Below are positions 6,628 through 7,824 of a DNA stretch of 64,000 bases, in pieces (the stretch's first letter is position 1; each line of letters starts with the position of its first letter). The stretch covers positions 17,266 through 81,265 of the forward strand of contig CAYQPU010000001.1 of assembly GCA_964419615.1 (NCBI GenBank), given 5' to 3'. The notes beneath the pieces were generated by a model. It made no database searches, was not told where the DNA came from, and worked only from the letters and a program-made list of their open reading frames with translations. The DNA comes from an uncultured Methanosarcinales archaeon (lineage in GTDB: Archaea; Nanobdellota; Nanobdellia; Woesearchaeales; JAGVZT01). The translations under genes and the position numbers were made by a program.

Positions 6628-7218
6628 ATGAGAATCCTTTGCTTTGTTGATGTTCATGGTGATTTTGGAGCCATTAGAAAATTGGCTAAAAAGGCTCGGA
6701 AAGCTGATTTGCTGATTTGTGCAGGAGATATTTCTAGATTTGAGACAGATATTGATCTGATTTTACAGAAATTGGATGAGATTGGCAGGAAAATTCTTAT
6801 TATACATGGAAATCATGAAGGTTCTGATTATTTGGCTGAAAAGTGTGAAAAATTTGATAATTTGGTGTTTTTTCACAAAAAAACTGAGTTTATTGAAGAT
6901 GTGCTGTTTATTGGTCATGGTGGAGGAGGATTTGAGGAAAAATCTCCAAATATGGAAAAGTTCTTTCAAAAAAACGAAGATATGCTTAGAAAGGCTCAAA
7001 AGTCAGTATTTATTACGCACGCGCCTCCTTTTAAGACCAAATTAGATGTTATTGGTAGAAATCACAATGGAAATAATACTTTAAGGAATCTTATTATCAA
7101 GTATCAGCCAGTTTATGCTATTTCTGGGCATTTTCATGAAAACTGGGGTAAAAAAGATACTATTGGAATGTGTAAGGTGCTTAATCCTGGGCCTTACGGT
7201 GTTTTAATCAATATCTAG
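6628..7218 (+). CDS. Calcineurin-like metallophosphoesterase
   Basis: DVHG, GD, HGNHE, THAPP and GHFHE motifs. Confidence 0.88.
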   Translation: MRILCFVDVHGDFGAIRKLAKKARKADLLICAGDISRFETDIDLILQKLDEIGRKILIIHGNHEGSDYLAEKCEKFDNLVFFHKKTEFIEDVLFIGHGGGGFEEKSPNMEKFFQKNEDMLRKAQKSVFITHAPPFKTKLDVIGRNHNGNNTLRNLIIKYQPVYAISGHFHENWGKKDTIGMCKVLNPGPYGVLINI

Positions 7219-7370
7219 TCTCAATCTTGCCCTGAGACTGTCTCAATATTGTCTCACACAGTTCCACAGGAAATCAAGGGGTGCCTTCTCCACATGAAAT
7301 AAAGGGGTCTCATCATTTGAAGAAGTCTCATTAATGTCTCAATTTCTTCTTAATGTTGTCTCATGAGACA
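7218..7370. repeat. Cluster of nine GTCTCA/TGAGAC hexamers with 11/22-bp spacing
   Basis: GTCTCA at 7218, 7240, 7251, 7307, 7325, 7336, 7358; TGAGAC at 7233, 7364; palindrome TGTCTCATGAGACA at 7357-7370. Confidence 0.85.
7261..7308 (+). other. Two ORB-like origin recognition boxes (candidate oriC)
   Basis: GTTCCACAGGAAATCAAGGGGT (7261-7282) and CTCCACATGAAATAAAGGGGT (7288-7308) fit the archaeal ORB pattern TCCA-N3-GAAA-N-AAGGGG; AT-rich tract follows. Confidence 0.65.
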
Positions 7371-7404
7371 AAAGTTTAATAAATCCAAGAGATAGATTAA
7401 AGTT

Positions 7405-7824
7405 ATGGGGGATGAATTAGAAGATCTAAAGTACAATCTAAAAGTATCTTTTTCTAGAATGAAGAATGATATTCAAGATAATAAAGATAAGATCTCAAAG
7501 CTTTTAGAAATAAACCAACAACTTGCAGATCAGGTTTCTGAGTTAAATAAAGGTCTTAATACAAAATCTTCTGGACCAAAATCTGAGCTTGCAAGGCAGT
7601 TTAAGAAGAATCAAAAATCTTTGATTCAACAGAGAATTTTGAGTTTGATTGAAAGGGCAGAATATTCCTTACCTGATCTAAAGATGATAATTGTTGATCA
7701 GAAAAGATATTGTTCTAAAGCCACGTTTTATAGGTATGTTAGTGAGCTTGAGAAATCAAAGCTTGTTAGTATGGCTGAAGTTAATGGTGAGAATATTGTT
7801 GTTGGCAAGAATGCTAATGAATGA
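7405..7824 (+). CDS. Coiled-coil plus C-terminal winged-helix DNA-binding protein
   Basis: Heptad-rich N-terminus; ILSLIE...YSLPDLK...CSKATFYRYVSELEKSKLV plus a beta-wing. Confidence 0.75.
   Translation: MGDELEDLKYNLKVSFSRMKNDIQDNKDKISKLLEINQQLADQVSELNKGLNTKSSGPKSELARQFKKNQKSLIQQRILSLIERAEYSLPDLKMIIVDQKRYCSKATFYRYVSELEKSKLVSMAEVNGENIVVGKNANE

Follow-up and report, generated by a model that had tools for sequence, protein, structure and literature searches.

A small intergenic region in the genome of an uncultured archaeon of the order Woesearchaeales raises the question of why full-length boxes for the replication initiator Orc1/Cdc6 should stand beside the gene of a small winged-helix protein. 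The region, called the cassette here, spans 186 bp (7219-7404) between a metallophosphoesterase gene (6628-7218) and a 139-aa open reading frame (ORF; 7405-7824, + strand). Coordinates are those of the 64-kb window that was analyzed (C1:17266-81265 of genome G000, 1.48 Mb in 64 contigs) unless stated otherwise. An earlier note on this DNA had taken the region for a candidate oriC, in which Cdc6 and the winged-helix protein would act together on two origin recognition boxes (ORBs) and a set of GTCTCA repeats. We find that the cassette is a real, conserved unit across Woesearchaeales and that it is not the chromosomal replication origin, which lies at the cdc6 gene of contig C3. Its role may rather be that of an off-origin regulatory site.

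The cassette is built as hexamer array, ORBs, hexamer array and promoter. Nine of the 20 copies of GTCTCA/TGAGAC in the window fall in 7218-7369, and their same-strand spacings are 22, 11, 56, 18, 11 and 22 bp. Array A (7218-7256, +) carries GTCTCA at 7218, 7240 and 7251 on the + strand, spaced by 22 and 11 bp, and one copy at 7233 on the - strand. Array B (7307-7370, +) carries four copies on the + strand (7307, 7325, 7336 and 7358) and one on the - strand (7364), and closes with the palindrome TGTCTCATGAGACA (7357-7370). A pair of ORBs in direct orientation occupies the space between the arrays: box 1 (GTTCCACAGGAAATCAAGGGGTGC, 7261-7284, +) and, 26 bp past it, its direct repeat, box 2 (7287-7310, +). 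The G-string of box 2 continues into the first hexamer of array B (junction GGGGTCTCA), and the junction GGGGTGTCTCA is kept in orthologous loci. The 20-nt ORB core TCCACAnGAAATnAAGGGGT is matched exactly at 7263-7282 and 7289-7308, with 0.11 matches expected per shuffle, and the genome has no further exact copy. With a weight matrix derived from the boxes of related loci, boxes 1 and 2 are the top two matches of the genome (37.4 and 28.7 bits), against 20-21 bits for the oriC boxes. They resemble both the classical consensus and the genome's own oriC ORBs over ~22 bp. Clusters of at least three hexamers within 60 bp occur nowhere among the 401 hexamers of the genome except in these two arrays. 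Outside the cassette the hexamer is mildly rare: the 401 copies in the genome compare with ~510 expected from base composition, and the window minus the cassette holds 11 where ~26 are expected.

Directly 3' of the palindrome, ~20-30 bp before the ATG of the 139-aa ORF, is an A/T box resembling a B recognition element (BRE) and TATA box (AAAGTTTAATAAAT, 7371-7386, +), where we place the putative promoter of the winged-helix gene. Orthologues whose cassette lies 5' of the gene share this order of last hexamer, TTTAWATA-like box and ATGGGGG, the last hexamer standing 35-50 bp ahead of the ATG and immediately 5' of the TATA-like box. The earlier description of two direct ORB-like boxes with G-strings, and of nine hexamers with spacings of 22, 11, 11 and 22 bp ending in a palindrome, is thus borne out by exact core matches, matrix scores and counted positions. 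What did not hold is the AT-rich DNA that was said to lie between them. The cassette has 63% A+T, below the genome mean of ~67%, and its longest A/T-only run, 10 bp, matches the median of equally sized windows across the genome. A search of 7219-7404 by composition returned no A+T-rich DNA unwinding element (DUE), and the ORBs are direct rather than inverted around one.

Where, then, is the origin? Only one gene in the genome encodes a Cdc6_C domain, the full-length orc1/cdc6 at C3:6815-~8100. Directly upstream of it, at C3:6490-6815, is a canonical oriC with ORBs at 6492 (-), 6720 (+) and 6790 (-). Some 140 bp of nearly pure A+T separate the inverted ORBs, including a 54-bp A/T-only run and reaching 96% over 100 bp. 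The same build, ORB(-)/DUE/ORB(+), is found upstream of cdc6 in most of the loci of 29 relatives. The box at 6790 is inverted and the TATA box of cdc6 occupies its G-string position, an overlap that implies autoregulation by Orc1. Set against canonical Orc1/Cdc6 origins (the oriC1 type of Sulfolobus, Pyrococcus and Aeropyrum), the cassette shares full-length ORBs with dyad and G-string, and its ORB consensus is indistinguishable from that of the C3 oriC boxes. It differs in having its boxes in direct orientation and within a second repeat family, in its base composition (63% A+T, not 96% over 100 bp), in its location away from orc1/cdc6, and in the lack of a replication-type skew turn at the cassette of one relative (G097, below). 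These differences speak against the proposal that it is the oriC.

Including the cassette, strong ORBs number five in this genome: the cassette and oriC have two each (not counting the weaker box in the cdc6 promoter), and the fifth, at C3:18288-18311 (-), lies ~200 bp upstream of tbp and is directed at it. ORBs 100-220 bp upstream of tbp and directed at it are also present in G085 (580084) and G097 (438170/438256), so that three families have them. The predicted Orc1 boxes are in this way found at three conserved places: at oriC and cdc6, at tbp and in the cassette. Together, the cassette and tbp ORBs suggest that Orc1 may have a small set of off-origin binding sites in these reduced DPANN genomes. 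Five genomes had seemed to hold two classes of ORB, GGGGT away from the origin and GG[T/A]GT at oriC, perhaps for different Orc paralogues. That idea fell, as many oriC boxes in most of the 29 relatives' loci carry GGGGT. In practice, ORB boxes alone are unfit for calling origins or rotating genomes in Woesearchaeales. A preprint on complete Nanobdellota genomes rotated them to ORC1/Cdc6 and mentions neither ORBs nor skew.

The cassette recurs well beyond this genome. Of 201 genomes sampled from the order, 110 encode a homologue of the winged-helix protein, and in a sample of 301 genomes across the phylum every genome with a match belonged to that order. These tallies, and those given below for the short Orc paralogue and for GTCCCA in 401 genomes, include the unpublished genomes G112, G121, G132, G183, G354, G355 and G406, on which no statement about an individual locus depends. 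We fetched 46 loci, chosen for a protein with the helix CSKA[TS]FYRY, which is almost invariant (alignment A1). In about 38 of them, one to three ORBs (>20 bits) stand no more than ~150 bp from the gene, with hexamer arrays on either side in nearly every case, which confirms the conserved neighborhood of ORBs, GTCTCA repeats and winged-helix orthologues for which the earlier note had called. The combination of ORB and array spans many families of Woesearchaeales, while the flanking genes vary by family. The literature that we searched contained no paper describing the cassette, and none that joined ORBs with Woesearchaeota or GTCTCA with archaea and a winged helix. New here are the association of cassette and gene, the 11-bp phasing, the covariation of helix and hexamer described below, and the restriction of strong ORBs to three places.

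Who would read the hexamers? In 44 cassettes, 80 of the 156 adjacent same-strand hexamer pairs are spaced by exactly 11 bp, and the spacings of all same-strand pairs peak at 11, 22, 33 and 44 bp, a phasing that puts all sites on one face of the helix. Two ORB-associated orthologues have CSKS where the others have CSKA, and their arrays read GTCCCA, not GTCTCA. A blind search for three GTCCCA at 11-bp spacing then returned 19 of 401 genomes, the reversed control pattern returning none. At 14 of the 17 published loci from this search the neighbor is a family paralogue with CSKS[ST]FYR, and CSKA is found at none of the 17 (L247 and L248 were excluded from this survey as well as from the covariation and tree counts). 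Across 78 distinct proteins, alanine goes with GTCTCA at 52 loci and serine with GTCCCA at 19, with two exceptions and five uninformative cases; the code relating helix to hexamer holds in 71 of 73 informative loci. In a tree of the domain, the Ser/GTCCCA locus L024 is nested in an Ala/GTCTCA clade, so that the switch of helix and hexamer occurred more than once (at least two independent switches). Such covariation argues strongly, on comparative grounds, that the winged-helix protein is the repeat binder and probably reads the GTCTCA hexamers, as had been suggested. The correspondence of Ala/Ser with T/C also provides a ready-made specificity-swap experiment.

The protein itself (recognition helix YCSKATFYRY) was modeled with AlphaFold from a 21-sequence alignment, at a mean predicted local distance difference test (pLDDT) score of 85. 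The model consists of a long N-terminal helix (residues 2-51), a second helix (58-84) and a winged helix (89-134), in agreement with the coiled coil and winged helix-turn-helix first read from the sequence, and predicts a winged-helix DNA-binding fold. Foldseek and VIA-align returned generic winged helices only (PadR, ArsR/SmtB, MarR, MecI, Fur, the winged-helix B domain (WHB) of cullin and the winged helix of Rpa2). For the single winged-helix domain (residues ~55-139), the best matches were cullin WHB, Rpa2 winged helix, MecI and PadR, with Z scores of 9-11. Neither the fold matches nor the sequence searches listed a Cdt1 or WhiP chain, the proteins with which a structural comparison had been proposed; the winged-helix protein may still be distantly related to them. 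Profile searches of Pfam, NCBIfam and PDB gave nothing above threshold, and no named family could be assigned, the sub-threshold hits (FUR, YabA, geminin) being coiled-coil or generic winged-helix noise. The matches in a language-model atlas are clusters of hypothetical proteins only. In a search of 5.8 billion proteins the close homologues are named "hypothetical protein, Candidatus Woesearchaeota", and one source labels a homologue "chromosome segregation ATPase", most likely a mis-annotation of the coiled coil.

If the cassette were an origin, strand asymmetry might be expected to turn there. Skew along the contigs of G000 was set aside as an origin test, because the contigs are too short and gene orientation dominates. 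G097 (1,131,583 bp), a complete genome, gives a clean signal of the replication type: cumulative keto skew turns at oriC-cdc6 (439.5 kb), with its minimum at 433.8 kb, and peaks at 925.7 kb. The change in skew from left to right places oriC at the 97.8th percentile of random positions and the cassette (640.7 kb) at the 42nd. G085 (909,956 bp), likewise complete, has purine-type (gene-orientation) skew only, turning at ~93-110 kb and 602-611 kb, with oriC-cdc6 at 587 kb; skew is unremarkable at its cassette (868.8 kb). Being purely of the purine type and not marking oriC, the G085 skew is weak evidence about the origin either way. In G085 gene orientation converges on oriC-cdc6 (587-611 kb) and diverges from ~93-110 kb, a stretch in which no ORB turned up, and oriC shows no keto-type skew; for a single-origin chromosome this is odd. 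The skew turn proposed for the cassette is absent, then, from G097 and G085; a purine-type switch does lie less than 3 kb from the cassette in a third relative (G320), and is weighed below. Ten contigs carrying both oriC and cassette (G085, G097, G148, G164, G098, G176, G320, G243, G060 and G102) were compared for orientation. The G-string end of the cassette ORB faces oriC in 8 of the 10, a trend short of significance, and the winged-helix gene is oriented 5:5 relative to the fork. A conserved orientation of the ORB relative to fork direction was dropped as an idea, since 8 of 10 is not significant and ten more genomes added no same-contig pairs. The distance between cassette and oriC varies from 0.05 to 0.67 of a replichore.

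Any explanation has to build on what was computed: the anatomy of the cassette, its conservation and lack of a DUE, the 11-bp phasing, the covariation of helix and hexamer, and the canonical oriC on another contig. Our preferred explanation, to which we give somewhat less than an even chance, is an off-origin complex of Orc1 and the winged-helix protein at a promoter, making expression of the winged-helix gene depend on Orc1 occupancy. The winged-helix protein, presumably a dimer through its N-terminal coiled coil, would occupy the two 11-bp-phased arrays. One to three boxes of predicted high affinity for Orc1/Cdc6 stand between these arrays, and the last box touches the hexamer with which the downstream array opens. 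In G000 the inverted pair of hexamers nearest the promoter borders directly on the BRE/TATA-like box of the gene, a position from which the complex would most likely set transcription according to Orc1 occupancy. Binding by Orc1 and by the winged-helix protein, a contact between the two and the transcriptional output are all inferred. The promoter would be under autoregulation and at the same time tied to the replication initiator or to the cell cycle. The cassette could then join tbp and cdc6, the latter with an ORB over its TATA box, as the third in a small Orc1 "regulon". What sets the cassette apart is a compact and widely conserved design that ties genuine Orc1 boxes, in a fixed arrangement, to a second pair of protein and DNA site that co-evolve. 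A partial precedent is Orc1-2 of Saccharolobus islandicus, a non-initiator Orc1 paralogue that acts as a global transcription regulator (PMC9738581, PMC12490963). The proposed complex would likewise bring an Orc1/Cdc6-family protein to promoters off the origins, and G000 also has a second, short Orc1 paralogue. The sites here are full ORBs and not the Orc1-2 promoter motif, and there is a partner protein with its own repeat array.

Several observations sit uneasily with regulation at a promoter. The cassette follows the winged-helix gene immediately on its 3' side at 7 of the first 30 loci, and at five of these seven the next gene, which is co-oriented, begins 180-345 bp downstream of the cassette. 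The linkage of gene and site is therefore more than promoter control, and a pure autoregulatory operator leaves it unexplained. The uniqueness of the hexamer clusters in the genome leaves the protein with no visible regulon, and the sense of a regulator that regulates itself alone is obscure. In G320, moreover, another complete genome, where skew was computed over 670-1070 kb, sharp minima of cumulative GC and AT skew (873.1-873.3 kb) fall less than 3 kb from the cassette ORB (870,426). Fifteen consecutive minus-strand genes (854968-873300) end at this cassette and gene orientation diverges there. The switch, a purine-skew V at 873.1 kb, ranks at the 98.4th percentile of the local null; in its keto component the sign is opposite to that at the G097 oriC.

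Some of these points are at home in a different account, in which the cassette is a non-origin site for control of the initiator. Escherichia coli datA and DARS1/2 are clusters of DnaA boxes outside the origin, with IHF and Fis sites, that control the nucleotide state of the initiator. By analogy, the winged-helix protein would shape the DNA around high-affinity Orc1 boxes so that Orc1 is sequestered or its nucleotide state or activity changed. Transcriptional effects would be secondary, and the gene would be kept by the site for co-inheritance and local concentration. Like datA/DARS, the cassette is a group of a few initiator boxes far from the origin, accompanied by sites for an accessory protein that would shape the DNA, and it occurs once per chromosome. 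It differs in the domain of life and the proteins involved, and in that its accessory protein is encoded in cis and specific to one locus. The boxes outscore those of oriC and are the best consensus matches in the genome, they number one to three between arrays of accessory sites with a G-string abutting a hexamer, and the hexamer cluster is unique and without a DUE. The cassette may stand 5' or 3' of the gene, so that its position relative to a promoter is not essential, and the ORB keeps its orientation toward oriC in 8 of 10 contigs where the gene does not (5:5), a difference that is not significant. The 3' cassettes, the unique site and the superior ORBs in fact fit such a locus at least as well as they fit a promoter. 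Against it, we know of no datA/DARS counterpart in archaea, where initiator control outside the origin is to our knowledge essentially unknown. An effect on Orc1 or its activity is hypothetical. The distance to oriC is not conserved, and a paralogous subfamily has phased arrays without an ORB, so that the ancestral module needs no Orc1. We consider this account possible but rather unlikely. Equally speculative is its extension to a locus that tunes Orc1 availability or activity, and hence the timing of initiation, across Woesearchaeales, and that in G320 might fire as a conditional second origin.

That the cassette is in general a second, weak or conditional origin, with Orc1 at the ORBs and the winged-helix protein as co-factor, was the model of the earlier note and now appears improbable. 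Its template is Sulfolobus oriC3, beside which WhiP, a Cdt1-related winged-helix protein, is encoded. Here too a winged-helix gene adjoins the element that its product presumably binds, genuine ORBs are conserved beside a dedicated DNA-binding protein gene, and the G320 minima, within 3 kb of the cassette, keep the model alive. The protein is a different one, with 139 aa, one generic winged helix behind a coiled coil and no Cdt1/WhiP-like match, and the cassette has 6-bp iterons and retains Orc1 boxes. There is no A+T-rich unwinding element, the ORBs are direct or single while the inverted canonical build sits at cdc6, the skew does not turn at the cassette of G097 or G085, and the G320 switch reflects coding-strand bias, with a keto component opposite in sign to that of the G097 oriC. 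Slightly less credence still goes to a centromere-like or chromosome-organizing site, which the winged-helix protein would coat as ParR does parC, or as AspA does, with Orc1 as a tether. In plasmid R1, two blocks of 11-bp direct repeats flank the promoter of the operon that encodes the binder. The parallel of two 11-bp-phased repeat blocks around a core, beside the gene of a likely autoregulated binder, is close, and the genome has no second such site. On a small contig that resembles a mobile element and carries a serine recombinase, a homologue is accompanied by GTCTCA arrays, and the "chromosome segregation ATPase" label, though most likely an error, belongs to another. The binder has a winged helix and is neither a ribbon-helix-helix nor a ParB-like protein. 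No partition NTPase gene adjoins the cassette in the window, or does so consistently in related loci: the neighbors are the metallophosphoesterase, a 231-aa protein without a match and ABCE1. The core consists of Orc1 boxes, which this account leaves unexplained, and not of a promoter, and the cassette is chromosomal and vertically conserved, unlike R1 parC. Last, the hexamers may be simply the operator of a self-repressing gene, with the ORB-like boxes bound by another factor or a relic. The ORB-less arrays of the paralogues and the last hexamers at the predicted promoter would suit this. We regard it as very improbable, because the boxes match oriC ORBs and the classical consensus over ~22 bp, are the only such sites besides those at oriC and tbp, and are kept in ~38 of the 46 loci.

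The wider family of the winged-helix protein bears on how the cassette may have arisen. A paralogous subfamily of 200-290 aa (LCSKS[ST]FYR; L238-L246, L250-L252 and L254) is accompanied by 11-bp-phased (A/T)GTCCCA arrays and no ORB, from which we conclude that the ancestral module works without Orc1. Its members usually lie between a methyltransferase-like gene and another winged-helix gene. Two matches were found in IMG/VR, one a real homologue with arrays and no ORB (L205) and the other a fragment of 30 residues. A viral or plasmid carrier was considered as a clue to function and discarded, as neither match shows a replicon function. In L205 (3,638 bp) the homologue occupies 258-695 and has the helix LCSKASFYRY. 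Its GTCTCA arrays are partly within its own coding sequence, where they encode SQ repeats, and partly at the 3' end. The adjoining NikA-like gene and serine recombinase indicate that the module also travels on a mobile element.

The window contains a second gene of the Orc1/Cdc6 family, at 23609-24676 (+), the "cdc6" that had been noted 16 kb from the cassette and offered as its partner. The family assignment stands (TIGR02928, 176 bits; NF001624, 208 bits). The 355-aa product is a short paralogue with no match to the Cdc6_C profile, and its proximity to the cassette is not kept: the two are 208 kb apart in G085 (660 vs 869 kb) and 543 kb apart in G097 (98 vs 641 kb). A weight-matrix scan agrees that there is no ORB upstream of 23609. 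The short paralogue is nearly universal in the order, and this, with the hundreds of kilobases that separate it from the cassette in G085 and G097, led us to reject a functional linkage of the two. Twelve genomes without the short paralogue also have no strong winged-helix orthologue, where ~3 overlaps are expected by chance; we judged this overlap uninformative.

No Rfam match was found in the region; a sub-threshold SAM_alpha hit in the coding sequence of the phosphoesterase is a chance one. The 231-aa ORF (7814-8509, -) is convergent with the winged-helix gene and overlaps its last 11 bp, and has no Pfam or NCBIfam match. Upstream of the cassette are a HEPN/DUF86-like ORF and a TrmB-family winged-helix ORF (3718-4134 and 6141-6611), and the C-terminal half of the latter overlaps small ORFs on the opposite strand.

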